64,000 nt of DNA from Methylococcaceae bacterium UBA1147 (GCA_002311315.1 DBZZ01000076.1:45401-109400), one strand, 5' to 3'. Positions 16,489 to 44,002 are shown, counted from the stretch's first letter. A program made the numbers and translations. Notes: a model not told the origin generated them from the sequence alone.

Positions 16489-16540
16489 TCGGACTAACCT
16501 GCCTTAATAACTCCAAACCCTGAACCAGAGTTAAAAGAGT

Positions 16541-17650
16541 CTATTTCGTAATTTCAAACTCGAGTATTGGCTTGACAACACTGCCCGTCGGCCCCAGGTT
16601 GTCGTATTCCGGCTTAACCTCCGGAATCATTTCACCCGAGGTTCTCGGTCCCCTGATAGAGGTCAAAAGGGCTTTCACAGGGTGGGCCAGCATATCCTCC
16701 ACTGCGGTGGATTCATACCCACAATGCGCCATGCAATTCGAACACTTGGGATTCTTTGAAGATCCGTAATTCTCCCAGGCTGTCTCCTCCATCAGTTCCG
16801 TGAAACTCTCCGCATAGCCTTCATCCACGAGCAGATAACAGGGTTTTTGCCACCCGAACACATTGCGTGTCGGGTTTCCCCATGGCGTACAGTTATAACG
16901 CTGATTCCCTGCCAGAAAATCGAGGTAAAGAGTCGAGTGATTGAACTTCCAGCCACGTCCTTTACCCAGGCTGAAGATTCCTCGGAAAAGTTCCTTGATC
17001 GGCTTGCCCTTGATGAAAACTTCCTGCTGTGGAGCATGATCGTAGCTGAAGCCAGGAGAGATGGTCACCCCTTCGACCCCCAGACTGGTGACATAATCCA
17101 GGAACTCCGCAACTTCGTCCGGCTTTTCGCCGTCGAAAAGAGTGCAATTGATATTAACCCTGAACCCCCGATCAAGCGCCATCTTGATTGCTTCCACTGC
17201 CCGATCGAAAACCCCTTCCTGACAAACCATTTCATCGTGCCGATCTCGATTACCGTCCAGGTGAACCGAGAAAGTCAGGTAAGGAGACGGCACATAATCA
17301 CCCATCCGCTTCTTAAGCAGCAAAGCGTTGGTACACAGGTAAACGAACTTCTTGCGTTTTATGATGCCCTCGACAATCTGCGGCAGTTCCTTGTGCAGCA
17401 GCGGTTCGCCCCCTGGGATCGAAACAATCGGTGCATCACATTCGTCCACCGCGTCAAGGCATTCCTCGACACTGAGACGCTTTTGCAGAATCTCCTCCGG
17501 ATAGTCGATCTTGCCGCAACCCGCACAAGCAAGATTACACTGGAACAGCGGTTCCAGCATCAACACCAGAGGGTAACGCTTGACGCCCTTGATCTTTTGT
17601 GTCAAAAGATATCGTGCAACGCTCAGCTGTTGCCTTAACGGTACGCTCAT
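16541..17650 (-). CDS. hpnH: Radical SAM adenosylhopane synthase (hopanoid side-chain extension), HpnH
   Basis: N-terminus YLLTQKIKGVKRYPLVLMLEPLFQCNLACAGCGKIDYP carries the CxxxCxxC radical SAM cluster motif. The 369-aa length and the hopanoid gene neighbourhood fit. Confidence 0.88.
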   Translation of the reverse strand: MSVPLRQQLSVARYLLTQKIKGVKRYPLVLMLEPLFQCNLACAGCGKIDYPEEILQKRLSVEECLDAVDECDAPIVSIPGGEPLLHKELPQIVEGIIKRKKFVYLCTNALLLKKRMGDYVPSPYLTFSVHLDGNRDRHDEMVCQEGVFDRAVEAIKMALDRGFRVNINCTLFDGEKPDEVAEFLDYVTSLGVEGVTISPGFSYDHAPQQEVFIKGKPIKELFRGIFSLGKGRGWKFNHSTLYLDFLAGNQRYNCTPWGNPTRNVFGWQKPCYLLVDEGYAESFTELMEETAWENYGSSKNPKCSNCMAHCGYESTAVEDMLAHPVKALLTSIRGPRTSGEMIPEVKPEYDNLGPTGSVVKPILEFEITK

Positions 17651-18645
17651 TTGCCTCCCCCATTGATAGTGGTATCACCTGAATTTCCGGTTTTCCTGGC
17701 CACTTTCATGGCCAGCCCAACGGGCAGGCGGAAAGTAACGGTTTCCGGCTCTGCATCCATTTCCACGATCTTGCCAATTCCCAATTCATCCAGTCTCTTC
17801 AGCACTTCCTGAACCAGCACTTCTGGAGTAGAAGCGCCTGCGGAAATACCAACCCGAAGATCCGGACTGAACCAAGACAGATCAAGATCACTTGCATCTT
17901 CAACCAGAAAGGAATTTACACCCATTTGTTCGCCAACTTCCCGAAGCCTGTTCGAATTGGAACTATTCCTTGCTCCGACCACGATCAGAAGGTCCACCTC
18001 TCCGGCGAGTTTCCTCACCGCTAACTGACGATTCTGCGTGGCATAGCAGATGTCGTCCTTCCGAGGCTCGATAACCCTAGGAAACTTTTTCTTGATAGCC
18101 ACCTGAATATTCTTGGTGTCATCCACGGACAGAGTGGTCTGAGTCACATAGGTCAGGCGAGAGGAATCCTTAACCCGCAGTTTTTCCACATCGCGTTCAT
18201 CCTGTACCAGATAAATCTCTCCGCCATAACTGCGGTCATAATGACCCAGGGTTCCATTAACCTCTGGATGCCCCGCATGACCGATCAGGATCACTTCGTT
18301 ACCGGCCTTGGCATTGCGAACCACTTCGAGATGAACTTTGGTCACCAGCGGACACGTTGCATTGAGCACATTCAAGCCACGAGCTTCAGCATCGACGATC
18401 ATCTTTTCGGCTACGCCGTGGGCACTGAAAACCGTCACTGCATCGGCCGGCACTTCATCCAGCGTTTCCACAAACACGGCTCCCCTACCCCTGAGGTCCT
18501 CGACGACTCGCTGGTTGTGGACAATTTCGTGAACCACATAGACCGGCGCTCCGTAGATCTCCAGGGCGGATTCCACGATCTCAATTGCCCTGACTACACC
18601 GGCACAAAACCCTCTCGGCTGGGTCATCAAAATATCCACTAGCAA
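17647..18645 (-). CDS. ispH: 4-hydroxy-3-methylbut-2-enyl diphosphate reductase (IspH/LytB)
   Basis: PRGFCAGVVRAIEIVE, ATCPLVTKVH, HPEVNGTLG and NSSNSNRL. The stop overlaps the hpnH start (ATGA, 17647-17650). The C-terminal tail of about 30 aa is not typical of IspH. Confidence 0.9.
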   Translation of the reverse strand: MLVDILMTQPRGFCAGVVRAIEIVESALEIYGAPVYVVHEIVHNQRVVEDLRGRGAVFVETLDEVPADAVTVFSAHGVAEKMIVDAEARGLNVLNATCPLVTKVHLEVVRNAKAGNEVILIGHAGHPEVNGTLGHYDRSYGGEIYLVQDERDVEKLRVKDSSRLTYVTQTTLSVDDTKNIQVAIKKKFPRVIEPRKDDICYATQNRQLAVRKLAGEVDLLIVVGARNSSNSNRLREVGEQMGVNSFLVEDASDLDLSWFSPDLRVGISAGASTPEVLVQEVLKRLDELGIGKIVEMDAEPETVTFRLPVGLAMKVARKTGNSGDTTINGGGK

Positions 18646-19247
18646 TACCCTCGTTATAATTGTTCCTTATTTCAGCGTCCCCGCCTTGAATCAGGGAATT
18701 GACACGAACCAGCGTTGTCGTTATTTTGCAACATCTAAACAGCTATCACTGAACCTGTCACCTGAGTACCTGCAAGCCCTCGCCATTCATCACCTAATAT
18801 AGGACACGTAAAAATGTGGGCACAGAAAACCTGATTCGATAGATAATTTTACTGGAAAATTAAGCCATTATCCAGAAACGAATGCAACCTGGCCATCAAC
18901 TTGGTGCAATAAAATCCAAGATTTGGCAAAACACAACAAATAGGAGGACAGCGAAGAACTATCGCCGACTTCCCAACAAACATTGTCATACCTTGACTCG
19001 ACCGGAAATTTCTATAGAATTCATTCAACTAAATTCTGATCTCTGTCGATACAGTAGAGGAAAATCTACGGAAAAATCAAACCGAATAATTGTTGTATTT
19101 TACCCAGTTCGAGATTTTCGAAAAAACCGGACCCACAAGAAAACCTCTAACGAGGAAATTGAAATAACCTGATTTCTATTTTAGACAGAAGCTTAGACTA
19201 TTTTCAGACACAAACCTGGCTCCGTACTGCCTTGTATTTTTTACAAT

Positions 19248-20333
19248 ATGATTAATGCAGCTGTCAAAATCTCTACCATGACTGTCCCAGAAGCGGAAAG
19301 CGTATTCGACCCCCCACTGGCAGAATTGTCGGATCTGGAAATGCAAACAATCCTTCTGGAGGGAGTCTCCCGGACATTTGCGATGACAATCCCGCAACTT
19401 CCGGAAGAACTATACACGGTGGTTGCCAACGCTTATCTGCTTTGCAGAACAGTGGATACGATTGAGGATGAGGTCAGCCTATCTACCGAGGCCAAAAGGG
19501 AATTTTGTAGAAGATTCATCGGCGTTGTAAAAAACACGGAGGATGCAGCAGGTTTCGCCACTGACCTGCACCCTCTGCTTTCGCAACAAACCATCCCTGC
19601 AGAACACGAGCTGATCGGCCATCTTGACCGGGTCATTGGCATTACCCACAGCTTCTCGACGGAACAGCAGGCGGCGCTCGTGACCTGCATAGAAACAATG
19701 GCCGGCGAAATGCCTGAATTCCAGGACCTGGATCTCCACTGTGGGCTAAAAACAATGGCGGATATGGACCGCTATTGCTACTGCGTGGCCGGTTGCGTTG
19801 GAGAAATGCTTTCGAGACTCTTCTGCGCTTATTCGCCGGAAATCGCTCAACACCAGCAAAGGATGCTCGAACTGTCGGTTTCTTTTGGCCAGGGGTTGCA
19901 GATGACCAATATTCTAAAGGACATCTGGGATGATCACCGGCGTTCGGTATGCTGGCTGCCGCAGGACAAGTTTACCAATCCGGCTTTCAATCTCGAGGAA
20001 CTGACCCCGAACCACAACAGCCCCGCATTCCGGAAAGGTCTGGAACAATTGGTCGCCATTGCCCACCTCCATCTGCGGAATGCCCTGGAATACACATTGC
20101 TGATTCCAAAAACAGAAACCGGTATTCGCTACTTTTGCCTCTGGGCTCTTGGCATGGCCGTGCTGACACTGAAAGAAATCAAGGCCAATCTGGACTTTGC
20201 GGCTCCCGATCAGGTCAAAATCTCACGACGGGCCGTCAAGTCAACGGTGCTGGCCACGCGTCTGGCCGTACGAAGTGACCTGGCGCTCAAAGCACTTTTC
20301 GCCATCACTTCGTACGGCCTTAAAAGCCGATGA
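19248..20333 (+). CDS. sqs: Squalene synthase, single-enzyme (eukaryote-like Sqs) type
   Basis: Squalene/phytoene synthase family. SRTFAMTIPQLPEELYTVVANAYLLCRTVDTIEDE parallels the SRSFA...YLVLRALDTLEDD pattern of squalene synthases. The second Asp-rich region is NILKDIWDD. It lies directly upstream of shc. Confidence 0.8.
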   Translation: MINAAVKISTMTVPEAESVFDPPLAELSDLEMQTILLEGVSRTFAMTIPQLPEELYTVVANAYLLCRTVDTIEDEVSLSTEAKREFCRRFIGVVKNTEDAAGFATDLHPLLSQQTIPAEHELIGHLDRVIGITHSFSTEQQAALVTCIETMAGEMPEFQDLDLHCGLKTMADMDRYCYCVAGCVGEMLSRLFCAYSPEIAQHQQRMLELSVSFGQGLQMTNILKDIWDDHRRSVCWLPQDKFTNPAFNLEELTPNHNSPAFRKGLEQLVAIAHLHLRNALEYTLLIPKTETGIRYFCLWALGMAVLTLKEIKANLDFAAPDQVKISRRAVKSTVLATRLAVRSDLALKALFAITSYGLKSR

Positions 20334-20399
20334 AAGCCCCGGCATCTTGACCAGCAACAACAAACTTCAATTCTAACCAGGCCTATAAACGAATCTACC

Positions 20400-22364
20400 A
20401 TGCTAAAAGATACAGCCCAGGCTAACCTGAGGAAAGAACCCGCCGAGAAGGGTACAGCCCTGCCCGAAGGTAACTGGAAAGCCAGCCTGGAGCCAGCGAT
20501 TAAAAAAGCGGAAAGCTCACTACGAAAAGCCCAGCAAACTGATGGCCATTGGGTATTTGAGCTCGAAGCCGACTGCACGATTCCATCGGAATACATCACC
20601 ATGATGCATTATCTTGGCGAAGTCGATGAACTTCTGCAGGCCAAGATTACAAACTACCTGAGGGCACGACAAAACAAGGATGGCAGCTACTCCCTTTTTA
20701 CCGGGGGCCCGGGAGATATCAGTTGCACCACTAAGGTTTACTTCGCTCTGAAGCTGGCTGGAGATTCCTCCCGGCGGCCACACATGAGAAAGGCCCGCGA
20801 ATATGTTCTGAGCCAAGGGGGGGCCGCGAAATGCAATGTTTCCACCCGGATTCTGCTGGCAATATTCGAACAGGTCCCGTGGAAAGCTGTGCCCTATATC
20901 CCAGTCGAAATCATGCTGTTGCCGAAGTGGTTTCCGTTCCACCTGGACAAGGTTTCATACTGGTCGAGAGCAGTGATGGTACCTCTGTTCGTCTTGTGTA
21001 CCCTCAAAGCAAAAGCCGTCAACCCGTCCTCAACCAACATTCGAGAGCTATTCGTAACAGCGCCGGAAATCGAAGAACATTATTTTCCAAAGCGCGGCCT
21101 ATTGAACAAGGTTTTCCTGGGGCTTGACTTCCTGGGTCGTTCCCTGGAGCCCTTCATCCCCAAACGCATGCGGAAGAAAGCGCTGCGCGCAGCGCAGCAA
21201 TGGATCAGAACGCGACTCAACGGCGAGGATGGTCTTGGGGGTATCTTTCCGGCCATGGTTCTCGCGTACGAAGCATTGTTGCTGCTTGGAATGCCGAAAG
21301 ACCATCCGGATGTCGTAATCGGAAAAAAGGCGCTGAAAAAACTCCTCGTGGTCAACGACCATGATGCCTATTTCCAGCCTTGCCTGTCGCCTATATGGGA
21401 TACCGGACTGGCAATCCTGGCCTTGCAGGAAACAGACTCAAAAGAAAATTCGGAAGAAATCGACCGCGGACTCGACTGGATTACTGAAAGACAGCTAGAT
21501 GACGAACCTGGCGACTGGCGCATCGCTTGCCCTGAATATCAAGGTGGGGGCGGATGGGCATTTGAATACGAAAACCCTTACTATCCGGATGTCGATGATA
21601 CAGCGCTTGTCGCCTACGCTCTGACCCAGGCCAGTGAAACGCGATTCCACGAATCCGCCCGCAAAGCAGCCCGGTGGGTCCACGTCATGCAGTCCAGAAA
21701 TGGTGGTTTCGGGGCATTTGACATCGATAATACCCATTATTATCTGAACGAGATCCCGTTCGCCGACCACGGCGCCCTACTCGACCCACCGACTGCAGAT
21801 GTCAGTGCCCGTTGCGCAATGTTCATGGCCAGGATGGTCGACGAACACCCTGAATACCGCAACACTCTCGATCAGGCAATCACCTACCTGCGGAATGAAC
21901 AAGAAACCGATGGATCATGGTTTGGACGTTGGGGAACCAACTACATTTACGGAACCTGGTCGGTGCTTGTCGCTCTGGAACAGATCGGGATATCCAGTGA
22001 CGACCCGATGTTCAAGGATGCCGTCTGCTGGCTGAAAAGCAAGCAGAACAGCGACGGCGGATGGGGAGAAGACAATCTGAGCTACCATGACACCGACTAC
22101 AGCGGCAAGTATTCGTTCAGCACATCATTCCAGACCGCATGGGCCCTGTTGGGCCTGATGGCAGCAAGAGAAACCGACTCGGCCGAAGTCAGAGCAGGAA
22201 TCAATTACCTACTCAAAACCCAGGAGTCCGACGGATTCTGGAACGATCCCTGCTTTACAGCCCCGGGTTTCCCTCGGGTGTTCTATCTGAAATACCACGG
22301 GTACAGCAAATACTTCCCGCTTTGGGCACTGGCCAGGTTCCGAAACACAGAATGCCGAAAATAA
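20400..22364 (+). CDS. shc: Squalene-hopene cyclase
   Basis: 654 aa. Catalytic PDVDDTA (YYPDVDDTALV) and repeated QW-type motifs (QNKDGSY, QSRNGGFG, EQETDGSWFGRWG, KQNSDGGWGE, TQESDGFW). Confidence 0.95.
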   Translation: MLKDTAQANLRKEPAEKGTALPEGNWKASLEPAIKKAESSLRKAQQTDGHWVFELEADCTIPSEYITMMHYLGEVDELLQAKITNYLRARQNKDGSYSLFTGGPGDISCTTKVYFALKLAGDSSRRPHMRKAREYVLSQGGAAKCNVSTRILLAIFEQVPWKAVPYIPVEIMLLPKWFPFHLDKVSYWSRAVMVPLFVLCTLKAKAVNPSSTNIRELFVTAPEIEEHYFPKRGLLNKVFLGLDFLGRSLEPFIPKRMRKKALRAAQQWIRTRLNGEDGLGGIFPAMVLAYEALLLLGMPKDHPDVVIGKKALKKLLVVNDHDAYFQPCLSPIWDTGLAILALQETDSKENSEEIDRGLDWITERQLDDEPGDWRIACPEYQGGGGWAFEYENPYYPDVDDTALVAYALTQASETRFHESARKAARWVHVMQSRNGGFGAFDIDNTHYYLNEIPFADHGALLDPPTADVSARCAMFMARMVDEHPEYRNTLDQAITYLRNEQETDGSWFGRWGTNYIYGTWSVLVALEQIGISSDDPMFKDAVCWLKSKQNSDGGWGEDNLSYHDTDYSGKYSFSTSFQTAWALLGLMAARETDSAEVRAGINYLLKTQESDGFWNDPCFTAPGFPRVFYLKYHGYSKYFPLWALARFRNTECRK

Positions 22365-23086
22365 TAACCAAGGTTGGCCTGCTCGTCGCATTACCCGACG
22401 AGCGAAAGACCCTCACAAACGCCCGGATCAAATCCGGGCGTTTTTCGCATCTGAACGAGAACACCATGATCTGTCTCTCGGGCGTAGGACCTGAAAATGC
22501 TTCCGCAGCTGCCATCAGTCTCATCGAGCAAGGGTGCGATGCCCTTGTCAGCTGGGGTTGCGCTGCAGCACTCAGGCCGGAGCTCAGGCCCGGTGATTTG
22601 TTAGTCCCAGAGCAACTCCTTTCCGCTTCAGGTGATTCAATGAACACCGACACGGTCTGGCGAACCAGGATTCTGGAAAGACTGGAAAATGGCCCAGAAA
22701 TCTATCCAGGTAGCATCACCGAGAGTTTATCCCTGGTTACTTCGACCTACGAGAAAAAGCGGTTGGCGGCTCGAACAACGGCTGCTGCGCTGGACATGGA
22801 GAGCGCAGCAATTGTCAGAACGGCTATCCGGCACAAAGTTCCGGCGATTGTAATCCGTGCAATTGCCGATACGGCTGACATGGATTTGCCCAAACCAGTC
22901 TCACTTTCACTGGACAACAAGGGAAATGTCCGCTTGCCCCTACTCATCGCGGGGCTAATCTGGAAACCCTCCTCAATCCCCGGCATCGCCCGTCTGGCCA
23001 GAGCATTCCGTTGTGCAACCAGAACGCTGGAGTATACGGCCCGGGAACTGCACTACGATTTTTCACCCGCCCCTCGCCCCGAATAA
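22352..23086 (+). CDS. hpnG: Hopanoid-associated phosphorylase/nucleosidase family protein (HpnG-like)
   Basis: PNP/UDP-phosphorylase-like fold pattern (VGLLVALPDE, SGVGPENA, SWGCAAAL, AALDMESAAI, IRAIADTAD). The ATG at 22352 lies inside the last 13 nt of shc. The longer 22139 ORF is just the out-of-frame overlap with shc. Confidence 0.78.
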   Translation: MPKIITKVGLLVALPDERKTLTNARIKSGRFSHLNENTMICLSGVGPENASAAAISLIEQGCDALVSWGCAAALRPELRPGDLLVPEQLLSASGDSMNTDTVWRTRILERLENGPEIYPGSITESLSLVTSTYEKKRLAARTTAAALDMESAAIVRTAIRHKVPAIVIRAIADTADMDLPKPVSLSLDNKGNVRLPLLIAGLIWKPSSIPGIARLARAFRCATRTLEYTARELHYDFSPAPRPE

Positions 23087-23095
23087 ACGACACGG

Positions 23096-25756
23096 ATGCC
23101 ACTCGCAAGCAAGGTTCATTCACTGCTCGAACGCTGTCTTGTGGCCTGGGTCTCGGCCATGATTCGGCACCGTTGGTTGTGCCTTGCCCTGATTTTCCTT
23201 CTCACCTGCGGCAGCGGTTACTACACGATCGGGAACCTAGGAGTGAACACCGATACGAAAGAAATGCTTTCCGCCGATCTGCAGTTCCGTAAGGAATACG
23301 CCCGGCTCAACCGGTCGTTCCCCGAAGATGCACGAGCGATCCTGGTGGTAATCAAGGGGAGCAATCCAGAACAGACAGATATGGCTGTAAAGAGCCTCAG
23401 TCAGCAATTCAGAGAACAAACCGATACCGTAGAATCAGTATACACGCCCAATCGAGGACCATTCTTTGACCGACAAGCCCTACTGTTCCTGAACGTAGAT
23501 GAACTTGACCAACTGGCCCTAGAAATTACGCGCGCGCAGCCTTTTCTTGGCCGTCTCAGCCAGAACAACTCGCTGGATCAACTGCTGAACCTTCTAAATC
23601 GTGCGATCCCGAAACAGAATGACAGTCATTCTCTAGCACAGACCGACAGTCTTCTGTTGGATCTGGCACAAAGCATACAGGCTGCACTGCAAGGAGGATA
23701 TCAATCCATTTCCTGGCAAAAGCTGATGCTTGGAGACAATTCGACGCTGAACCAGAACACAGGTTTCATCCTGGTCGCTCCCCGTTTCGATTACAGTGAC
23801 CTGGTCCCGGCCGAAAAGTCCATCCAGTCCATTCGCGCCATCTCACACGAATTCGAAGCAAACAACCGCGGCACCTCCGTACGACTGACCGGTGAAGTAG
23901 CTCTGGAGCATGATGAACTCGAGAGTATCAGCAAGGGCACCGCCGTGGCCGGGGCGGTTTCTTTGGTTCTGGTCTGCCTCAGCCTTGTCTGCGGACTGAG
24001 GTCAGTCCGGCTGGCAACGGCAACACTGATCGCTCTTGTCTCAGGGCTTATACTCTCGGCCGCGTTTGCGACTTTCGCCGTTGGCAATTTGAATCTGATT
24101 TCGATTGCATTCGCGGTTCTGTATATCGGGCTCGGGGTCGATTACGCCATCCATCTGTGCCTCAGAATCCAGGAAATGATTCGCGCCGGGGTATCCCGCG
24201 ACAGCGCGGTCATCAACAGTGTGCGCTGTCTCGGTCCGTCCCTCATTCTTTGCTGCCTGACCACATCGATGGGTTTCTACTCTTTCGTACCAACCGCCTA
24301 CCAGGGTGTATCCGAACTGGGAATCATATCCGGTACAGCGATGTTCATCGGACTTTTCATCACCCTGTCACTGTTACCCGCCCTCCTGGTTTGCCTGCCC
24401 GGGAAGGCAGGCGCATCGCCCCCTGAATCCAGCCCCATCCCGCGTAATTGGCACAGTTTCCCGGTTCGCCATCGGCGGTCGATAAAAATCAGTACGGCGC
24501 TGGTCGCCCTGTACAGCATCTGGAGCCTTTCGGATATTACTTTCGATTTTGATCCCGTTTCATTGCGCGACCAGGGTTCCGAATCGGTCACCACATTCAG
24601 GGAATTGCTGAAAAACAAAGAAACTTCTCCTCTGGTCATCTCGGTCATCGCCAACAACGAGAAACAGGCCCGGGAAAAAATCGGTCAGCTCCAACAACTC
24701 GACTCGGTAGACAGCGTGTTAAGTATTTTGGACTTCATGCCGGAAAACCAGGAAGAAAAACTTGAGATCATCGAGGCGCTTGACGATAGTCTTGGGCCAC
24801 TGATGGGCAATTTCCCTCCGCTAGGGACCGTCGATGTGCATCGACAGACCGAAGAACTCGGAACCCTGTTGGCGATCCTCGACAGCAACGGCAATGCCCA
24901 TGCGGAGCATGCTCACTCGGAAACCGTAGGCCGGCTGATGCTGCGTCATCAGTTGCGAAACCTGCTCGTGATCCTTGAACAGTCGACCAAGCAGGAAAAG
25001 CAAGAGCTTTTGGCAACCATTCAGAAAGCAGCCCTGGAAAACCTGGCCGGGGCCATCGCTAAGCTCACGACCGCGTTAAACGCTTCGGCCTTTGACGATC
25101 TAAATGCTCTTCCCGAACCTTTCCTGCGCAGATGGCTAAGCCAGGACGGGCTTTTCCGGTTGCAGGTACAGCCCCGCAAGGACCTGAATGACCTTGACAA
25201 CCTGCGGGAATTCGTAGAACAGGTGCGGGAAGTAGCGCCCAATGCATCCGACCTTCCCGTAATCTACTTGGAATCCGGGAAAGAGATCGTCAGAGCGTTC
25301 CAGCAAGCAACGGCCTATGCGGTCATCGCAATCTCGCTGATCTCATTTATTGTTTTGGGAAATATCCGGGAAACCGGCCTGGTTCTGATGCCACTGTTCC
25401 TGACCGCCATTCTAACCGGCGCATCAACCGTGCTCTTCGACAACCCATTCAATTTCGCTAATATAATCGTCCTGCCGTTGCTGCTGGGCCTGGGGGTCGA
25501 CAGTTCGATCCACATCGTGCATCGTCTCCGACTGATGCAATACCAGCAGTCGGAGATCCTCAAGACCAGCACCGCCCGGGGCATCTTCTTCAGCGGCCTG
25601 ACCACCGTTTTCAGTTTCACCAGCCTGGCGTTCATTTCACATGCCGGGACTGCCAGCCTTGGTCTGTTGCTGACCATTGGTATCTTGCTGACACTAATCT
25701 GCACCCTTGTCGTTCTGCCGGCATTTGCAGTGAAACCCAAACCCAGTTTTTCTTGA
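23096..25756 (+). CDS. hpnN: RND/MMPL-family hopanoid transporter (HpnN-like)
   Basis: 886 aa with two blocks of about 6 TM helices, each preceded by a large soluble loop (RND architecture). It sits inside the hopanoid operon. Confidence 0.82.
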   Translation: MPLASKVHSLLERCLVAWVSAMIRHRWLCLALIFLLTCGSGYYTIGNLGVNTDTKEMLSADLQFRKEYARLNRSFPEDARAILVVIKGSNPEQTDMAVKSLSQQFREQTDTVESVYTPNRGPFFDRQALLFLNVDELDQLALEITRAQPFLGRLSQNNSLDQLLNLLNRAIPKQNDSHSLAQTDSLLLDLAQSIQAALQGGYQSISWQKLMLGDNSTLNQNTGFILVAPRFDYSDLVPAEKSIQSIRAISHEFEANNRGTSVRLTGEVALEHDELESISKGTAVAGAVSLVLVCLSLVCGLRSVRLATATLIALVSGLILSAAFATFAVGNLNLISIAFAVLYIGLGVDYAIHLCLRIQEMIRAGVSRDSAVINSVRCLGPSLILCCLTTSMGFYSFVPTAYQGVSELGIISGTAMFIGLFITLSLLPALLVCLPGKAGASPPESSPIPRNWHSFPVRHRRSIKISTALVALYSIWSLSDITFDFDPVSLRDQGSESVTTFRELLKNKETSPLVISVIANNEKQAREKIGQLQQLDSVDSVLSILDFMPENQEEKLEIIEALDDSLGPLMGNFPPLGTVDVHRQTEELGTLLAILDSNGNAHAEHAHSETVGRLMLRHQLRNLLVILEQSTKQEKQELLATIQKAALENLAGAIAKLTTALNASAFDDLNALPEPFLRRWLSQDGLFRLQVQPRKDLNDLDNLREFVEQVREVAPNASDLPVIYLESGKEIVRAFQQATAYAVIAISLISFIVLGNIRETGLVLMPLFLTAILTGASTVLFDNPFNFANIIVLPLLLGLGVDSSIHIVHRLRLMQYQQSEILKTSTARGIFFSGLTTVFSFTSLAFISHAGTASLGLLLTIGILLTLICTLVVLPAFAVKPKPSFS

Positions 25757-25779
25757 ATTCAACCCTTTCGAGGTCATTG

Positions 25780-27168
25780 ATGTCCGATTCTCTTACCGAT
25801 CTGATGGCAGCCCGAGAGGGCGAGAATTTTTCTCTGCACGACACCTACCTGAACTCCCAGATGGTCAAGGTTCTGAAGACTATCGGCTATGACCGGGTAT
25901 ATACGAAGGCCAAGGGACAATATCTCTACGACCGAGATGGCAATGAATACCTGGACCTACTCAGCGGCTTCGGCGTGTTTGCCGTTGGCCGTAATAATCC
26001 GACCGTGGTCAAAGCACTTCAGGATGTATTTCGTGAACAACTGCCGGACATGGTTCAGATGGATGTCTCCCTGCTGAGCGGCCTGCTTGCAGAAAAGATC
26101 ATCCAGAACTGCCCGTCTGGACTGGAACGAATGTTCTTCTGCAATTCGGGCTCAGAAGCCGCGGAAGCCGCCATCAAATTTTCCCGTTACACCACAGGCC
26201 GACCGAACATCCTGTATTGCGAGAACGGATTTCATGGCCTGACACTGGGCGCATTGTCGGTCATGGGCGAAGAGATCTTCCGCGAGGGTTTCGGCCCTCT
26301 GCTGCCCGGCTGCAATGCGGTACCATTTAATAATCTGGAGGCACTGGAGAATGCCCTGCGTTCCAAAGATGTGGCGGCATTCATCGTCGAGCCCATCCAG
26401 GGCAAGGGAGTCAATCTGCCGAATGACAATTATCTGCCGGAGGCTCAGCGTCTATGCGCGAAGTACGGAACCCTTTTTGTTGCGGATGAAATTCAGACCG
26501 GGATCGGGCGGACGGGCAAGTTCTGGGCGATCGATCACTGGAATGTCCAGCCGGACATGATTCTGATGGCCAAGGCCCTTTCCGGAGGATTCATCCCGGT
26601 TGGTGCCGTAGCCATGAAACAGTTCATCATGGACAAGGTCTTCAACCGAATGGACCGGGCGGTCATCCATGGCTCAACATTCTCCAAGAACAACATGGCC
26701 ATGGCTGCAGGCCTCGCGACCATTCAGGTCATCGAGGAAAACAATCTGCTCGACAACGCGGCGCACCTCGGTGAGGCGATTGTCAGGGAACTAAACAGCC
26801 TGATCGGCCAGTACGAATTCCTCAAGGAAGTGCGAGGCAAAGGCCTGATGATCGCAATCGAATTCGGTGCACCAAAAAGTTTTTCCCTGAAAACCGCGTG
26901 GAACCTGCTGGAAACCGCCAACAAGGGGCTGTTTTGCCAGATGGTGACCATCCCCCTGTTTGCCCACCACGGGATACTGACCCAGGTAGCCGGTCACGGC
27001 ATGAATGTTGTGAAAATACTGGCTCCGCTTGTCATCACCGAAAAGGACAAGGACCTAATCGTCCGGTCCTTCGATAGCGTGATCGCCGATTGTCACAAGG
27101 TTCCGGGTTCGATATGGGATCTTGGCAAGACGCTCGCAGGACATGCTCTGAAGTCCGGTAAATCATAA
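25780..27168 (+). CDS. hpnO: Class-III pyridoxal-phosphate aminotransferase (HpnO-like, aminobacteriohopanetriol branch)
   Basis: NSGSEAAEAAIKFSR, FHGLTLGALS and DEIQTGIGRTGKFWA with the downstream Lys (LMAKALSGG). The ATG at 25780 is preceded by GAGG. The ORF track starts at TTG 25753, overlapping the hpnN stop. Confidence 0.75.
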   Translation: MSDSLTDLMAAREGENFSLHDTYLNSQMVKVLKTIGYDRVYTKAKGQYLYDRDGNEYLDLLSGFGVFAVGRNNPTVVKALQDVFREQLPDMVQMDVSLLSGLLAEKIIQNCPSGLERMFFCNSGSEAAEAAIKFSRYTTGRPNILYCENGFHGLTLGALSVMGEEIFREGFGPLLPGCNAVPFNNLEALENALRSKDVAAFIVEPIQGKGVNLPNDNYLPEAQRLCAKYGTLFVADEIQTGIGRTGKFWAIDHWNVQPDMILMAKALSGGFIPVGAVAMKQFIMDKVFNRMDRAVIHGSTFSKNNMAMAAGLATIQVIEENNLLDNAAHLGEAIVRELNSLIGQYEFLKEVRGKGLMIAIEFGAPKSFSLKTAWNLLETANKGLFCQMVTIPLFAHHGILTQVAGHGMNVVKILAPLVITEKDKDLIVRSFDSVIADCHKVPGSIWDLGKTLAGHALKSGKS

Positions 27169-27200
27169 CGGAGTTCATTCCCGAGCCAGTCCGAAACAGG

Positions 27201-37760: not shown

Positions 37761-38678
37761 ATGTGGTTCAAAAATTTAGTCCTCTTCCGTTTTTCGGAAC
37801 CCTTCCAGCTCTTAGAGCCGGATCTAGAACAGCGTCTTTCCACCCTGGACTTCCGTGCCTGCGGTGCACTGGAGTCATCCACCATTGGCTGGGTTCCCCC
37901 TCTCGGCCAAGGCGTCGAAAACCGGGTCCATACAGCCAATGGATTCATGATGTTGTGCGCATGCAAGGAGGAGAAGGTTCTTCCTGCGGCTGTAATCAAC
38001 GAGACTCTTGGCGAACGAATCTTGGAAATAGAACAGAAGGAGCAACGGCAGGTCCGCCGAAAGGAACGTGAGGGTCTGCGTGACGAAATCACCTTCGAAT
38101 TGTTGCCGCGGGCACTGAGTTTCAGCCGGCGCACCTACGGATACATCGATCCACGAGGCCAATGGCTGGTCATTGATGCCGCAAGCGCCAACACTGCAGA
38201 CGCATTCACCGGACTGCTCAGGCGCTCGCTTGGCAGCCTTCCCATCGCCCCCCCTCGAACCCTGGAAAGGCCAGTCGCCACGATGACCCGCTGGCTTTCA
38301 AAGAAAAACTGTCCCGGGGATCTGGCGGTAGGCAGCGAATGCGACCTGCGTGCCACCAAGCAGGAAAAGAACATGGTCCGCTACAGGGGACAGGATCTGT
38401 TTTCCAGGGAAATCGACACCCATATGGACGCCGGAAAAGAATGCATCAAACTCGGACTCACCTGGAATGACCGTTTCAGCTTCACACTCGACGAAGACCT
38501 GAACATCAAGAAACTGCGATTCCTCGACCTGATCCAGGAACAGGCGGAAGACATTGACAGTGATGCCAGCGCCGACCTTTTCGATGCCCACTTTGCCATC
38601 ATGACTTTGGAACTTTCATCCTTCCTGCCCAGGCTCCTCGAACTTTTCGGTGGCGAAGCCCCTCAAAGGAATCATTAA
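37761..38678 (+). CDS. rdgC: Recombination-associated protein RdgC
   Basis: MWFKNLVLFRF...FRACGALESSTIGWVPPLG, 305 aa, typical RdgC length and N-terminus. Confidence 0.9.
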   Translation: MWFKNLVLFRFSEPFQLLEPDLEQRLSTLDFRACGALESSTIGWVPPLGQGVENRVHTANGFMMLCACKEEKVLPAAVINETLGERILEIEQKEQRQVRRKEREGLRDEITFELLPRALSFSRRTYGYIDPRGQWLVIDAASANTADAFTGLLRRSLGSLPIAPPRTLERPVATMTRWLSKKNCPGDLAVGSECDLRATKQEKNMVRYRGQDLFSREIDTHMDAGKECIKLGLTWNDRFSFTLDEDLNIKKLRFLDLIQEQAEDIDSDASADLFDAHFAIMTLELSSFLPRLLELFGGEAPQRNH

Positions 38679-38691
38679 CCGGGGAAAGAGG

Positions 38692-39693
38692 ATGACAACG
38701 GATGTTGAACATCAGATGATGAAGTCGATGTCCATGACAGTCTGCAGGATCCTACTTCTCTACTCGATCGGTTTTAGCGCGGCTTGCGAAACCTTTACGC
38801 TACCGCCTGTAGACCTGGACCTGATCGGTTCCATGGGATATACCCACGCGGCCGATGCAGACACTCTATTGGACATCGCCAGGCATTTCGATCTAGGCAA
38901 CAATGAAATCACCAATGCCAATCCGGGGGTAGATCGATGGTTGCCGGGGGAAAAGACCCTGGTATTCCTCCCCAAGCGATATATCCTGCCGGATGCCAGG
39001 CGCTCGGGCCTCGTTCTCAATGTATCGGAAATGCGAATGTACTATTTTCCGAAAGCTCGCAAGAATCAAGCACCAGAGGTAATGACCTACCCCATGAGCG
39101 TCGGACGTATGGACTGGACTACGCCTCTTGGGATGACCCGGGTTGTCGGTAAGAAGAAAGATCCGACCTGGACGCCGCCGGAGTCGATCAAGGCCGAACA
39201 CGCTACCAATGGCGACCCACTGCCCAATGTGGTTCCGGCTGGCCCTGATAACCCGCTTGGCCGATATGCCATCCGGCTCGGGATCCCGGGATACCTTATT
39301 CACAGCACCAACAAGCCCTACGGCATCGGTATGCGTGTTTCCCACGGATGCATCCGAATGTATCCGGAAGATATCGAAAAACTTTTTCCCGGGGTCAGGG
39401 TTGGCACCCGGGTCAACATCATCGATCAGCCGGTAAAGATCGGCTGGTTCGCTGACATGCTGTACGTGGAAGCACATCCCCCACTCGAGGAGAACAGGAT
39501 CACTGACAAGGAGGCGGTGGAAGAAACCCTTGCAAGAATCGCAGACCAACACCCGATGGGAATATTGCACCTCGACAGGGAAATAGTGGGAAGCGTGATC
39601 AGGGAACGGCGCGGAACCCCTGTTGTCGTTTCCCGAAAACCGAGTCCCCAGGAACGAGAAAACCCGGCACAAGAAACTGTAACCAGTCTATAG
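38692..39693 (+). CDS. L,D-transpeptidase (YkuD/ErfK family) with an N-terminal LysM-like segment
   Basis: The catalytic motif is YLIHSTNKPYGIGMRVSHGCIRMYPEDIEKLF. The signal peptide is MKSMSMTVCRILLLYSIGFSAAC. The start is uncertain (38692-38719). Confidence 0.85.
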   Translation: MTTDVEHQMMKSMSMTVCRILLLYSIGFSAACETFTLPPVDLDLIGSMGYTHAADADTLLDIARHFDLGNNEITNANPGVDRWLPGEKTLVFLPKRYILPDARRSGLVLNVSEMRMYYFPKARKNQAPEVMTYPMSVGRMDWTTPLGMTRVVGKKKDPTWTPPESIKAEHATNGDPLPNVVPAGPDNPLGRYAIRLGIPGYLIHSTNKPYGIGMRVSHGCIRMYPEDIEKLFPGVRVGTRVNIIDQPVKIGWFADMLYVEAHPPLEENRITDKEAVEETLARIADQHPMGILHLDREIVGSVIRERRGTPVVVSRKPSPQERENPAQETVTSL

Positions 39694-39778: not shown

Positions 39779-41230
39779 CTAGTCTTTTCGTCTCAGTCTG
39801 TTGCGTGACTCTTCCAACTTCGTCAATGAATTGGTCAGGCCTTTCCGGATCGCTTTCCCCGCATCCAGTAGCACCTTCAGCTCACGTTCCGGGATCCTGT
39901 AATTACCGACCACGTTGAATCCCGGGAAGTAAGATTTTTGCTTGCTGTCTGTCTTGGGACCTGCAAGCACCTTCCTTTTCGATAAGTCCAGTTCTACTGG
40001 TAGGCGAATTCGAATCTCAACAGCGTTGCCGCAAACGGGGCACTGGCCATCCCGGTGCGGCGTACTGCTCTTCCAGGTACAGACAGAACAGCGGCAAAAG
40101 TTCAGGTCCATGGACTTGCCATCCAGACCCGATTCGGGATCGGCCACGGAATCTTTATCAGGCTCCCAAACCTTCAACCCACGAACCTGCAGTTGACTGG
40201 CTGACTTGTACACCTCAACCGTGCTCCTCGGTTTCACATCGTCACCCACCGGTTTCTTTCCAGTTTCGACTCTACCGTTAACGGAACCGGTCAGCCTGCC
40301 ATAGGTTGAATCGGTTACGTAATGTTCCTGGTTGAACCTTCTAAGCTCCTCATGTACCTCCTCTGACGAAGGTCGTTTCAGAGGATTTTTGTCCAGCATT
40401 CTCTCAACCAGAAACATGACCGGCGCCAGCCCGGCACGTGTCGGTTCCGGCCACCTGAGTGGAATGCCATCGAGAACGGCTTCTCCAGGATAAGCATGAT
40501 CTGACGGATAGAAAGGCAGGCTTCCGGTCAGGTATTCGCAAAACGTAAGTCCCAGGGAAAATATATCCAGGGCCTGTAACAGGGCAGGATGACGGTCCTT
40601 TTTTTCTCCATCTCCACCCAGAACCCAATCGATCAGCTCAGGGGCCGAATACAACTGATCGCCCACAAGTTCATCCGGGGTCGGAGGATGTCCGACATAA
40701 AAGCCGGCATCGAAATCAATCAGGTTGGCAACGAAACCACTACCGAATTGCTGAATCATGAAGTTCTGGGGCTTGATGTCGGCATGTATGAACCCCGATG
40801 GTTCATGGAGTTTCCTGAGCGCGTAAGATGCCGACAGCAAAACCAGCATTTGGTTGCTCTCTGGCAGGATTGATACATCCACTTGCCGGGAATCTACCTT
40901 CCTGGTTACCTTGAAATAATTTCCGTCGTGCCGGAAAAAGTCAACGGCGCGCACAAGAAAACAACTATCTCCACGTCTGCTCAACATTAATTCCACGACT
41001 TCCATTCGAAACTCGAACGCCTGGCATCGATCCCGCTTGCGTTCCTTAGCCGTATCTGATCCCAGTCCACCCGTGTCCGGATAAACCGGGGTCAGGTAGC
41101 ATTTCAAAAAATAATCGCTTCCATCTTTACTGACGAATGTCCACATTGACGTACCGGCACCCGATGTTGTCATATCGGCAATTAGGGTATAGCCCTTCAG
41201 CGTGGTACCGGCAGTTAGATGTTTTGCCAT
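39779..41230 (-). CDS. Ser/Thr protein kinase with a C-terminal CxxC...CxxC zinc ribbon and a basic helical tail (TerY-P triad kinase)
   Basis: Hanks-type motifs: Gly-rich TSGAGTSMW, YFLKCY (Lys), the catalytic loop HADIKPQNFMI, LIDFDAGF (DFD in place of DFG), LYSAPE and DIFSLGLTFCEYLTG. The C-terminus has CRCSVCTWKSSTPHRDGQCPVCG. The ATG at 41230 overlaps the PP2C gene end by 16 nt. Confidence 0.85.
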   Translation of the reverse strand: MAKHLTAGTTLKGYTLIADMTTSGAGTSMWTFVSKDGSDYFLKCYLTPVYPDTGGLGSDTAKERKRDRCQAFEFRMEVVELMLSRRGDSCFLVRAVDFFRHDGNYFKVTRKVDSRQVDVSILPESNQMLVLLSASYALRKLHEPSGFIHADIKPQNFMIQQFGSGFVANLIDFDAGFYVGHPPTPDELVGDQLYSAPELIDWVLGGDGEKKDRHPALLQALDIFSLGLTFCEYLTGSLPFYPSDHAYPGEAVLDGIPLRWPEPTRAGLAPVMFLVERMLDKNPLKRPSSEEVHEELRRFNQEHYVTDSTYGRLTGSVNGRVETGKKPVGDDVKPRSTVEVYKSASQLQVRGLKVWEPDKDSVADPESGLDGKSMDLNFCRCSVCTWKSSTPHRDGQCPVCGNAVEIRIRLPVELDLSKRKVLAGPKTDSKQKSYFPGFNVVGNYRIPERELKVLLDAGKAIRKGLTNSLTKLEESRNRLRRKD

Positions 41231-42459
41231 AGCGATTTGAACCCGTTCCAGAAAACACGCGCCCAGAATATGATAGGCCCGCTCAGGATGGTTGCAAGAA
41301 CAAAGCCCAACAACCATGCGAGAAACAGTTCCCACGGTCTCGAGGCACCGGACCATCTAACCTGGAGCCTGGGAGGCTCTGTGGCCTCGGTTTCTTCCCG
41401 CACATCGTTACAGGATCCGTCCGCCATATCACTAGGCCGGCGACCCGGCAACGTTTCGTATACCGGCTGATAGATCTGCGACCAGACCTCCTCAGCTGTT
41501 AAATCGGCTGCCATGCAACGACCCAACAAGCCATGCGATGCATTGCTACGCCTCGAGCGCTTGAACTCACTGAAATTCTCCATGCCAACGGGGAAAACCG
41601 CGCACGAAACATCATCGGAACAACCATCCGCGAACCGCAACCTTAAACACTCGGTCCATGAATGCCATGATTCACTAGCCTCCAACGCTTGCTGCAATCC
41701 GGCCTCGAATTGCCATGGATTCTCGAACTCGGAATAACAGCCATCAGAACACAGGAACAAGACTCCGGGGCAGTCCAGGTAAAATTCGCAGAGGTTCAGG
41801 CGCCATTCCCGTTCCATGCTTGCCGCAAGAAACTGGCTCATGGGTGGAGGATCCAGAACCGATTGAAAGGCATCCGATCCTGTCAGATTATCGTCCCGAC
41901 TCAACTGGCGAAGCGCATTGGTCCCCAGGAAGTAGATTCTTGAATCCCCGATCCAGTAACATTCCACCCGACGAACCAATGAATCCCTGACCGGATGAAC
42001 AACGGCCACGGCCAGAGTGGTCGCCAACCTGTGCCGCCCGAGCGTACCGCGAACACGGCTTGGTGGCAGTTTGGTCTCCGACAGGTACCTCAGTTGTTTG
42101 AACACCAAGTTGGTGAGCGCTTCCGCATCGGCTTCGGCATCGGGGTTGGAATTCCTGAAGTAATCAACCACGGCATCAATTGCAGTCGAAGCCGCAATCT
42201 GGCCACCGCTTCGGTTGTCAAACCCCAGGGCATATCCCCCAAGGCCATCCGCCACACCCAGCAATAGCCGGTTTCCGGAAATCGCCTGGCATACCGGCTC
42301 TGCATCTTCGCAGCGGCTCAGGTCTTGCTGGCCAGCCAAATCTCGTGCCGCAGCGACACGAAACAGCAAAGAAACAGCCTTTACTGATTCGACAATTTCT
42401 TCATTAACCGGGGCTTGTTCGCCGACGCCATGCATCGCAACACCAGATCCAGGGCTCAT
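41215..42459 (-). CDS. PP2C-family Ser/Thr phosphatase with a C-terminal hydrophobic anchor (TerY-P triad phosphatase)
   Basis: PP2C motifs are LLGVADGLGG, TTLAVAVV, WIGDSRIY, LSRDDN and LFLCSDGCY. The C-terminal segment WELFLAWLLGFVLATILSGPIIFWARVFW looks transmembrane. Confidence 0.85.
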   Translation of the reverse strand: MSPGSGVAMHGVGEQAPVNEEIVESVKAVSLLFRVAAARDLAGQQDLSRCEDAEPVCQAISGNRLLLGVADGLGGYALGFDNRSGGQIAASTAIDAVVDYFRNSNPDAEADAEALTNLVFKQLRYLSETKLPPSRVRGTLGRHRLATTLAVAVVHPVRDSLVRRVECYWIGDSRIYFLGTNALRQLSRDDNLTGSDAFQSVLDPPPMSQFLAASMEREWRLNLCEFYLDCPGVLFLCSDGCYSEFENPWQFEAGLQQALEASESWHSWTECLRLRFADGCSDDVSCAVFPVGMENFSEFKRSRRSNASHGLLGRCMAADLTAEEVWSQIYQPVYETLPGRRPSDMADGSCNDVREETEATEPPRLQVRWSGASRPWELFLAWLLGFVLATILSGPIIFWARVFWNGFKSLWQNI

Positions 42460-42491
42460 CCACCAATTCTTGAAAACCGGTACAGATCCAT

Positions 42492-43163
42492 CTAGATACT
42501 GTTTCCAATCGCTTCGAGAATGGTATCCATGTCATGCTCCGCAAGACCTTCTCCGGCGATCGAAGGGAAATAAATGGTCTGATCCCAGTTGTGCCCGATC
42601 TGGTTCCAGGGTTGCGTATCCGGCGCATAGAGTAGAAGTCGCCGACTTGTCACTGGCAACTCTTCCCACAGATCGGTCAATTCATCCAGGTTTCCCGGCA
42701 TATTTTCCGGGTAGTTCGGCGGCATTGATTCCTTCGCCCTTTCCAGAGGATGAGCTGTGGCATCCGTCCACAAAACAACAATGTTCCGTTTTTTCGATCT
42801 CGGGTTTTTGAACCATGGCGACTGTAAGCCCAGGGCGAGTCCTTCCAGTCCGCTTTCCGGCTCATCGCCTCCGCCATCGGCCCAGAGTTCGTTGACAAAA
42901 GAGTCGAACTGGTCCGCATCTGTTTTCATGTCGATGAAATCGGGCATTGCCTTGATTGGCTCCCGATCCGCCCAAAAATCACGGAAAGACACGACCCGCA
43001 TGCGCAAGCGATTGATTACTTTTTTCTTTGCTTCCATGCGGCCCATTATTTTTCCATGAAATTCAAGAGCCTGTGATTTGACCCGGTTAATCACCGGTCT
43101 CATGCTGGCCGTACTGTCAATCACTAGTACGATGTCAACGAAATATGCAAGCCGATTGGCCAT
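42492..43163 (-). CDS. von Willebrand factor A domain protein (TerY-like)
   Basis: MIDAS motif DIVLVIDSTASM (DxSxS), with downstream GGGDEPESGLEGL and VVLWTDA. The ATG at 43163 is preceded by AAGGGAGG at good spacing. The ORF track start at 43190 is less likely. Confidence 0.85.
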   Translation of the reverse strand: MANRLAYFVDIVLVIDSTASMRPVINRVKSQALEFHGKIMGRMEAKKKVINRLRMRVVSFRDFWADREPIKAMPDFIDMKTDADQFDSFVNELWADGGGDEPESGLEGLALGLQSPWFKNPRSKKRNIVVLWTDATAHPLERAKESMPPNYPENMPGNLDELTDLWEELPVTSRRLLLYAPDTQPWNQIGHNWDQTIYFPSIAGEGLAEHDMDTILEAIGNSI

Positions 43164-43572
43164 AGTTCCTCCCTTTAGTTCTACCGTCATACCGTTTTGA
43201 ATATCGGGACATTACCCACCCTCTGGCCCCAATTTCTGGCAGTGGTCCGCACTGGCAGGTCAAAGGCCTGAATCGCTTTCACAAATTCGAAGAAACGATG
43301 ATAGGCACTCACAGCAACTCGACAGCCGGGTCCACCGGATATTCCTCTTCGTCAGACACGCCGTAGCAACTATTCGGCGCAACAAGCGGGAATATTCAGA
43401 GCTTTCGATCGAATTGTAACTCCACCACCTGTTGATGGCTACCGATTGAGGAAGGTTCAAAATCACCTGAAACATTCGAGTTTCTGGATTTTTTAGAAAT
43501 CCCCGCTAAGTCGTTGGTGAGCCGACATTACTTGCATGCCTTTAAAAAAGAAGCGGTAATCAGAGAAGCCTA

Positions 43573-43648
43573 GAGTGATACTCCCTTAGCAGGGGAGCAT
43601 CGGTTAATGGCCCACAAGTTCATGGGTTCGATTCCCATCACCCATGCA
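43573..43648 (+). other. tRNA-like relic (T arm and acceptor 3' half intact, D arm possible, anticodon stem not foldable)
   Basis: ATGGG-TTCGATT-CCCAT (43622-43638) is a canonical T arm. It is followed by CACCCAT-G. TCCC/GGGA could form a D stem at the right distance. I found no matching 5' acceptor strand, and only 3 of 5 pairs form in the anticodon stem. Confidence 0.3.
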
Positions 43649-43883
43649 TATCCTATGAAACCCAGTAAACACGAGGCATCCAGCCCAAGATTACTTCCAT
43701 TTATGCTGTATACAGCCCCTACTAGTATGTAGACGAACATAAGTAGTAATCGGAAGGGAGCCAAGCTTACAGGGAAACAAGCCATTTGCGCAGGATCGGC
43801 AGATCCAGGCGTCGCTTGTCAAGATTGGATGAATGTATTCCGATTCCTACCCGATCCACAACCAGAAAAATGACCGGCAAGCG

Positions 43884-43928: not shown

Positions 43929-44002
43929 TGGCTGGGGGAGAGGGATTCGAACCCCCGTTGACGGAGTCAGAGTCCGTAGTCCTACCACTGGACGATCCCC
44001 CA
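43929..44002 (-). tRNA. tRNA-Gln (anticodon CUG)
   Basis: The reverse complement folds by hand into a cloverleaf: acceptor TGGGGGA/TCCCCCA with U1-A72, discriminator G and encoded CCA; D stem GTCC/GGAC; anticodon stem ACGGA/TCCGT with loop CT-CTG-AC; T arm GGGGG-TTCGAAT-CCCTC. Confidence 0.9.

Follow-up and report, generated by a model that had tools for sequence, protein, structure and literature searches.

A stand-alone vWA, phosphatase, and kinase cassette of probable TerY-P type in an uncultured Methylococcaceae genome

The window analyzed here is a 64,000-nucleotide stretch from Methylococcaceae bacterium UBA1147 (GCA_002311315.1, DBZZ01000076.1:45401-109400), and at positions 39,779 to 43,163 it carries three genes for a small vWA protein, a PP2C-family phosphatase, and a Hanks-type Ser/Thr kinase (Table 1). 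In its domain content this cassette is very probably of the TerY-P type. An earlier reading of the same DNA (the original prediction) had described three co-directional minus-strand genes, with a 32-nucleotide (nt) gap between the vWA stop codon and the PP2C ATG and a 16-nt overlap of the PP2C stop with the kinase start, and the open reading frames (ORFs) and the sequence agree with it exactly. The three proteins are encoded in a single, translationally coupled operon.

The three domain calls of the original prediction all lie above the Pfam thresholds: the vWA protein matches VWA_4 (E value of 9e-11, 42 bits against a cut-off of 27), the phosphatase matches PP2C_2 (4e-11, 43.3 bits against 24), and the kinase matches Pkinase (1.7e-19, 70.7 bits against 31.7). 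NCBIfam returned only generic matches for these proteins, all sub-threshold. Every motif read earlier was also located, namely DSTAS in the vWA protein; VADGLGG, GDSR, and CSDG in the phosphatase, together with CEDA and SDD; and HADIKPQN, DFD, and SAPE in the kinase, together with YFLK. Two of the ORFs extend mechanically beyond the starts adopted here. The vWA ORF reaches 43190, and its start was placed at ATG 43163 because AAGGGAGG precedes this codon and the resulting 223 amino acids (aa) equal the length of the homologs; the kinase ORF reaches 41356, and its start was set at 41230, the homologs beginning with MA(K/I)HL.

The vWA protein is a small, predicted cytoplasmic protein with a complete metal ion-dependent adhesion site (MIDAS). 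Its MIDAS residues (D16xT18xS20, the DGGGDEPE loop, T133, and D134) are unvarying across 56 homologs, and an AlphaFold2 model with a pLDDT of 90.3 found integrin beta-I vWA domains as the nearest solved folds in a PDB search. The family is large, with 747 representatives at 50% identity for E values of 1e-30 or below and 2,614 at 1e-10 or below.

The phosphatase is predicted from its motifs to be active. The ED, DGxGG, GDSR, DG, and DD motifs are unvarying in 10 cassette phosphatases from four phyla, and the nearest solved relatives are tPphA, Stp1, and PstP, with PppA also among the solved relatives. Toward its C terminus lies a hydrophobic helix (Kyte-Doolittle score of 2.16 in a 19-residue window), followed by a conserved KSLWQ end that overlaps the kinase start. 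The helix is found in the window, in the closely related locus L011 (a Methylococcales metagenome-assembled genome [MAG]), and in the homologous loci L042 and L044; it is weak in L046, and the actinobacterial, acidobacterial, and Herpetosiphon cassettes lack it. Membrane tethering of the phosphatase is thus predicted for the gammaproteobacterial subgroup only.

The kinase is likewise predicted to be active, and of the non-RD type, from its residues. The catalytic residues are unvarying in 29 to 32 homologs, and the protein has no N-terminal sensor domain. AlphaFold2 models the kinase domain (aa 1 to 318) mostly with a pLDDT above 90, the linker that follows as disordered, and a helix at aa 448 to 482. 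The distal part of the tail (aa ~374 to 483, MDLNFCRCSVCTWKSSTPHRDGQCPVCG…) aligns with separate fourth ORFs of 120 to 127 aa in L042, L046, L051, and L052. In the closest cassettes the start of this fourth ORF overlaps the kinase stop, L044 has an uncalled fourth ORF, and the internal MDLNFCRC of the window kinase falls where the relatives' fourth ORF has its start codon. A search of 5.8 billion proteins found the 483-aa fused form only in the window's own lineage (P0121, 92% identity; L011), all other kinase homologs being 366 to 380 aa long and covering ~73% of the query. This distal part is thus a fused module that was formerly a separate gene. Its designation as a zinc ribbon rests on a four-cysteine pattern, which is kept in the orthologous fourth ORFs, because no Pfam model reaches threshold over the tail; no OB or S1 domain was found there. 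The fourth gene of Arthrobacter mobilis encodes a zinc ribbon with three S1 domains (S1 E value of 2.3e-36), and that of an acidobacterium encodes a RanBP-type zinc ribbon. The zinc ribbon (or S1/OB) can therefore be seen as a modular fourth component, fused or separate, and the phosphatase as a component that can be membrane-tethered, as predicted here.

Table 1. Features of the vWA/PP2C/kinase cassette and its flanks, numbered from the first nucleotide of the window
Feature	Position	Strand	Remarks
rdgC	37761..38678	(+)	flank
YkuD L,D-transpeptidase gene	38692..39693	(+)	flank
Kinase gene	39779..41230	(-)	483 aa; stop codon 39779-39781
Hanks-type Ser/Thr kinase domain	40277..41230	(-)	aa 1-318; non-RD (HAD)
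Kinase key residues			K43, H149-A-D151-x-K153-xx-N156, D172-F-D174, P197-E198, D222, R286
Kinase C-terminal extension	39782..40276	(-)	disordered linker aa 319-373, then module aa 374-483
Putative zinc ribbon	40028-40090	(-)	C381-xx-C384-x12-C397-xx-C400 (4-Cys); then basic stretch and terminal helix aa 448-482
PP2C gene	41215..42459	(-)	414 aa; PP2C-family Ser/Thr phosphatase
PP2C metal-binding residues			E51-D52, D71-G-x-G-G75, G171-D-S-R174, D189, D239-G, D282-D283; full set present
PP2C C-terminal hydrophobic helix	41248..41334	(-)	aa 376-404; predicted membrane anchor
vWA gene	42492..43163	(-)	223 aa; Pfam VWA_4 family
vWA MIDAS, D16-x-T18-x-S20	43104-43118	(-)	DSTAS, aa 16-20
vWA DGGGDEPE loop	42855-42878	(-)	MIDAS part
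vWA T133-D134	42759-42770	(-)	MIDAS part
Operon leader/promoter region	43164..43540	(-)	no supported ORF; weak sigma-70-like site 43441..43413
tRNA-Gln(CTG)	43929..44002	(-)	flank; rpsI, rplM, and tusBCD on the same side

Genes for a vWA protein, a PP2C, and a kinase occur together in 11 of the 12 independent genomic contexts examined, so the trio is more than a chance association. The 11 contexts span Pseudomonadota, Actinomycetota, Acidobacteriota, Cyanobacteriota, and Chloroflexota, and the catalytic and MIDAS residues are unvarying over homologs of five phyla. The closest cassettes, with vWA proteins 70 to 80% identical, occupy three different chromosomal sites: a RimK/VTT site (L046 and L051), a position adjoining UPF0014 (L042 and L052), and one after PcfJ-like and MraZ-like genes (L044). 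Remoter cassettes, with vWA proteins 31 to 50% identical, include an acidobacterial one. An Arthrobacter cassette has DDE transposases and an integrase on its flanks, and two copies are plasmid-borne, on Calothrix sp. 336/3 plasmid NZ_CP011383 (55.8 to 61.2 kb, L048), beside IS1 and a methyltransferase gene, and on Herpetosiphon plasmid pHAU01, beside a resolvase gene. The triad is also carried by an unverified fecal "phage" contig (MT836186, L050) and by an IMG/VR contig; phage carriage comprises these two viral-collection contigs only, and their phage hallmarks are weak. Given the co-occurrence in 11 of 12 contexts at varied chromosomal sites, on two plasmids, and near transposases, the cassette is accessory and mobile.

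The single context with a vWA gene alone is that of Raineya sp. MAGs (L008 and L009), where a 49%-identical VWA_4 protein without kinase or phosphatase adjoins a TMEM260-like membrane protein of 1,034 aa, which shows that the vWA component can occur apart from the triad. Gene order is permuted in two of the cassettes. In L048 the kinase follows the vWA protein and the PP2C comes last, as the N-terminal domain of a 1,042-aa protein; L050 has PP2C, kinase, and then vWA.

By the definition of Bell et al. 2024 (PMC11090510), TerY-P combines a TerY-like vWA protein with a PP2C and with a kinase bearing a zinc ribbon at its C terminus, an architecture class that goes back to Anantharaman, Iyer & Aravind 2012. 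The match to this triad drawn by the original prediction holds at the level of architecture and includes the kinase zinc ribbon, which had been overlooked. Judged by its domains, the window operon falls within the TerY-P architecture class, an assignment to the class and not to a specific validated sequence family. TerY-P with a zinc-ribbon kinase is typically embedded in CoCoNuT operons (PMC11090510), and the TerY-P of CoCoNuT types II and III-A has the same domain set in the same order as the window (vWA with MIDAS, PP2C, kinase with zinc ribbon), co-directional and tightly packed, a likeness judged by domain architecture and not by sequence. Unlike CoCoNuT, the window triad is accompanied in its 64 kb by no McrB-like CnuB, McrC-like CnuC, CnuH helicase, or HEPN protein CnuE; nearly all of its relatives encode the zinc ribbon in a fourth gene of its own, the fusion being confined to this lineage; and its PP2C bears a predicted membrane helix.

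Nearly all large ORFs of the window were searched against Pfam, and apart from the cassette the window is housekeeping in content: relA/spoT, parC/parE, ispA, dxs, a hopanoid cluster, mlaC, dapF-xerC, gltBD, RNase E/G, xseA, and ggt. No ter genes (including TerB, TerC, and TerD matches) and no McrBC/CoCoNuT, FHA, MoxR, or type VI secretion system (T6SS) genes were found in the 64 kb; the window being otherwise housekeeping, no partner system is present. The cassette stands alone, as had been described, without ter genes, FHA, or any visible effector other than the kinase, and its flanks (rdgC and the L,D-transpeptidase gene on one side, tRNA-Gln-rpsI-rplM on the other) are the housekeeping genes originally named. 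An orphan triad of this kind could be the functionless relic of a larger system, be it CoCoNuT type II/III-A, ter, or a TerY-P linked to type VII secretion, from which the partners have been lost; zinc-ribbon kinase triads usually lie inside CoCoNuT operons, and decay of TerY-P clusters is known from H. pylori. We consider such a relic most improbable. The three genes are intact, their catalytic residues are unvarying, their ratios of nonsynonymous to synonymous divergence (dN/dS) are 0.07 to 0.24, and the same stand-alone layout of three or four genes recurs at every homologous locus, where no McrBC, helicase, or HEPN genes were found.

Stand-alone TerY-P systems offer a further comparison. 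In the defense version validated by Gao et al. 2020, an OB fold takes the position of the zinc ribbon (per PMC11090510). TerY-P systems confer protection from T7-like/Autographiviridae phages in E. coli and in P. aeruginosa and leave the cell alive (P. aeruginosa: Costa et al. 2024, PMC10889362), in line with the phage protection that the original prediction mentions for TerY-P. Like these systems (Gao et al. 2020; Costa et al. 2024), the window has three genes and a nucleic-acid-binding-type module at the kinase C terminus; the validated kinase of Gao et al. has an OB fold, whereas the window kinase has the putative zinc ribbon. The Arthrobacter member of the window family has a zinc ribbon and three S1 (OB) domains at the position of the Gao OB fold, and this S1/OB version bridges the definition by zinc-ribbon kinase and the OB-fold defense version. 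The window differs from the validated systems also in its host, an uncultured MAG of a methanotroph order, to which an anti-phage role is extrapolated; by analogy, we give an anti-phage function a chance close to, or slightly short of, even.

A vWA protein, a Hanks-type kinase, and a PP2C are also combined in the T6SS PpkA/PppA/Fha set and in the MoxR-vWA-kinase-phosphatase-FHA (Esr) clusters, where they form a reversible phospho-switch responding to attack (Kaur et al. 2020; bioRxiv 10.64898/2026.09.08.750141). Unlike these sets, the window has no FHA protein, MoxR AAA+ protein, beta-propeller sensor, or T6SS or Esx genes, and its vWA protein is a separate, small, presumably cytoplasmic protein and not a periplasmic kinase domain.

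We think it probable, short of confident, that the locus is an accessory, stand-alone phospho-switch cassette of the TerY-P type, which would work as follows. The kinase would be intrinsically competent and kept silent by the co-expressed PP2C, which would hold the kinase or its substrates in an unphosphorylated state. The vWA protein, through its MIDAS, would act as sensor or scaffold, and may itself be a phospho-regulated switch. Its MIDAS would bind an acidic residue of the trigger, most plausibly a phage protein; the trigger would shift the balance between kinase and phosphatase, and the kinase would then phosphorylate viral or host targets, so that replication is blocked. The zinc-ribbon (or S1) module would direct the kinase to nucleic acid or to a ribonucleoprotein, a targeting suggested because homologs have a zinc ribbon with S1/OB domains at this place and the system of Gao et al. 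has an OB fold. If so, the locus would add a divergent, stand-alone member to TerY-P, a validated anti-phage system. Mutational targets are offered by K43/D151, D71/D239, D16/S20, and C381/C397. The host is uncultured, and the locus is no easier to test than the systems of E. coli or Pseudomonas.

The same enzymes could instead form an addiction or abortive-infection module, in which the unopposed kinase would be a toxin acting on translation factors or RNA-bound proteins through the zinc ribbon or S1 module, the PP2C would neutralize it, and the vWA protein would gate its release; the cassette would then persist by addiction or kill infected cells. The overlap of the PP2C stop with the kinase start is obligatory and ensures co-expression, as such a pair would need, and the non-RD kinase without a sensor domain of its own, the RNA-binding S1 module of some homologs, and the distribution, which resembles that of mobile elements, all fit. 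There are also precedents for kinase-based defense, and PD-T4-6, mad6, and MkoA are the best PADLOC matches of the window kinase. P. aeruginosa TerY-P, however, protects at both low and high multiplicities of infection, with most cells surviving and no culture collapse (PMC10889362), and is therefore not abortive; the window cassette, moreover, has been stably inherited under normal constraint in two species. We regard a module of this kind as improbable.

Several observations weigh against the TerY-P-type phospho-switch reading. Apart from the kinase, no effector is visible. Likeness to the ter-linked triad was assessed against plasmid R478 (NC_005211, 61238-67465, that is, 61.2 to 67.5 kb; L060), whose cluster has three TerY paralogs of family PF00092, one with a TerY-C metal-binding domain (PF15616), as well as TerX, a 545-aa PP2C, and a 499-aa kinase, and adjoins terZABCDE. 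The R478 cluster follows the same enzymatic logic as the window, with vWA protein(s), then PP2C, then kinase on one strand; the likeness is of superfamily level only, with hhalign probabilities of 52% for vWA (E value of 1.5e-4 over 108 columns of the window profile and R478 TerY), 68% for PP2C, and 95% for the kinase, and the window vWA belongs to VWA_4 and not to PF00092 like the TerY proteins. A tblastn search of the three proteins against PLSDB returned no ter plasmid and no enterobacterial matches. PADLOC v2.0.0 gave no vWA or PP2C match in the window or in 56 family members, and only generic kinase matches (mad6, PD-T4-6, and MkoA) for the window kinase. Ordinary metabolic genes surround roughly half of the homologous cassettes, and the neighbors of homologs gave almost no defense matches; the only ones are a Cas4-like nuclease domain and a weak mad8 match, both at one acidobacterial locus. 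The cassette has a normal GC content, no integrase, no att repeat, and no tRNA association; it is also as old as the split from L011, and a domesticated physiological regulator would look alike.

The silence of PADLOC, which left the cassette uncalled when applied to the original prediction of a defense system, is uninformative because the R478 triad, used as a positive control, was also without vWA or PP2C match; the only annotation of the R478 kinase is "lipopolysaccharide kinase InaA family." Defense catalogs thus appear to be blind to such triads. Similarly, P. aeruginosa TerY-P is a functional "variant" that was found by hand and had escaped both PADLOC and DefenseFinder (Costa et al. 2024, PMC10889362). 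With PADLOC v2 blind to both the window family and the R478 triad, cassettes of this kind are likely to be under-counted in defense censuses. It is conceivable, though unlikely, that the cassette of VWA_4-type vWA protein, PP2C, kinase, and zinc ribbon (or S1) is a distinct and widespread immune or conflict system that catalogs have missed. The exchangeable nucleic-acid-binding fourth module (zinc ribbon, or zinc ribbon with S1; fused or separate) would in that case aim a constitutively competent kinase at RNA-bound targets, with the integrin-beta-like MIDAS protein sensing the infection.

The window belongs to JGI metagenome contig 3300003702 PicMicro_10000026. The nearest genome is that of L011 (RdgC 95% identical), the sole close relative, and there too the triad occupies this position. 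At the nucleotide level the window and L011 are 91.5 to 94.3% identical in the triad and 90 to 96% identical in the flanks, and synonymous divergence (dS) is 0.17 to 0.24 and 0.16 to 0.27, respectively. The dN/dS ratios against L011 are 0.066 for the vWA gene, 0.166 for PP2C, 0.24 for the kinase, and 0.33 for the kinase tail, and all three genes are under purifying selection. With GC contents of 0.51 to 0.55 and third-position GC (GC3) of 0.55 to 0.59, the triad resembles its flanks, and a compositional mark of recent transfer was accordingly rejected. Since dS and identity match those of the flanks, dN/dS is low, and GC is ordinary, the cassette is functional and older than the split from L011; it is not a recent insertion. 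The proposal that it is an acquired cassette therefore stands in part: the patchy distribution supports it, and the composition, the lack of integrase and att repeat, and the absence of recent divergence do not.

These findings also bear on the reading of the triad as a physiological signaling module and not as immunity, in which a eukaryote-like pair of kinase and phosphatase would control some function of the host, for example translation or the response to envelope, metal, or oxidative stress, and the vWA protein would be an adaptor that senses a metal or ligand. The reading goes back to the original idea of TerY-P as a "metal-sensing phosphorylation switch," metal sensing having been proposed by Anantharaman et al. 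2012 (as summarized in PMC11090510). It would suit the housekeeping surroundings in the window and several relatives, the host-like composition, the dS equal to that of the flanks, the very strong constraint on vWA, the predicted PP2C anchor of the gammaproteobacterial subgroup, and the stability of sites within sub-lineages (RimK|VTT in L046 and L051; UPF0014 in L042 and L052). It sits less well with the patchy, cross-phylum spread, in which vWA proteins are 45 to 50% identical between Proteobacteria, Actinobacteria, Cyanobacteria, and Chloroflexi, or with the source-named vWA matches of at least 67% identity, all of which are from MAGs and none from a cultured Methylococcales isolate. Copies lie on plasmids or have transposase flanks, the sites vary between lineages, no neighboring substrate or regulator gene is conserved, and no FHA or transcription-factor output is encoded. 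On balance a physiological module seems rather unlikely, yet it deserves serious weight.

Comparison of the interval from rdgC to rplM between relatives showed that the trio is not universal at this locus: L011 excepted, the triad lies beside ykuD in 0 of ~10 genome loci and in none of the 31 metagenome loci in which 4 kb or more follow ykuD. Other Methylococcaceae retain rdgC-ykuD with neither the triad nor rpsI downstream, and the triad therefore sits at a lineage-specific synteny junction. Neither a single genome scan with RdgC nor a single metagenome scan with YkuD turned up an empty site, with ykuD next to tRNA-Gln-rpsI and no triad between them. Beyond ykuD synteny is lost, and the insertion event is therefore not directly demonstrable.

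The cassette lies just 3' of tRNA-Gln, and an island targeted to this tRNA gene was considered and rejected: no integrase and no bracketing direct repeat were found, and none of the other triad loci has a tRNA next to it. The 377-nt leader that precedes the vWA gene (43164-43540) is 94% identical to L011, a conservation equal to that of coding DNA; it had no Rfam match and no ORF with a Pfam match, and its promoter-like site scores 9/12. The leader sequence is shared with L011 and was not seen beside the triads of other genomes.

Between the leader and tRNA-Gln, a 228-nt stretch (43540-43767) is absent from the otherwise collinear L011. Within it, on the plus strand at ~43621-43660, is a fragment resembling the 3' half of a tRNA or tmRNA, with T arm and acceptor (ATGGG-TTCGATT-CCCAT-CACCCAT), which matches positions 346 to 363 of the Rfam tmRNA model with an E value of 8e-4. 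ARAGORN called no gene in the stretch, no second copy of it occurs in the window or in the loci compared, and its fold is not significant (z of -1.4). The stretch may be a relic att site or a pseudo-tRNA of a lost element. As the att site of the triad the fragment was rejected, because the 228-nt insertion is absent from L011, which has the triad.

Elsewhere in the window, two overlapping adjacent ORFs on the minus strand (2951-4051 and 4035-5363; 366 and 442 aa) match no Pfam family at an E value of 1e-4 or below and are the only large unannotated genes. The hopanoid biosynthesis cluster extends over ~16500-27200 and encodes a radical-SAM HpnH-like protein, IspH, squalene/phytoene synthase, squalene-hopene cyclase, a PNP_UDP nucleosidase, an MMPL transporter, and a class-III aminotransferase, with dxs and ispA upstream.

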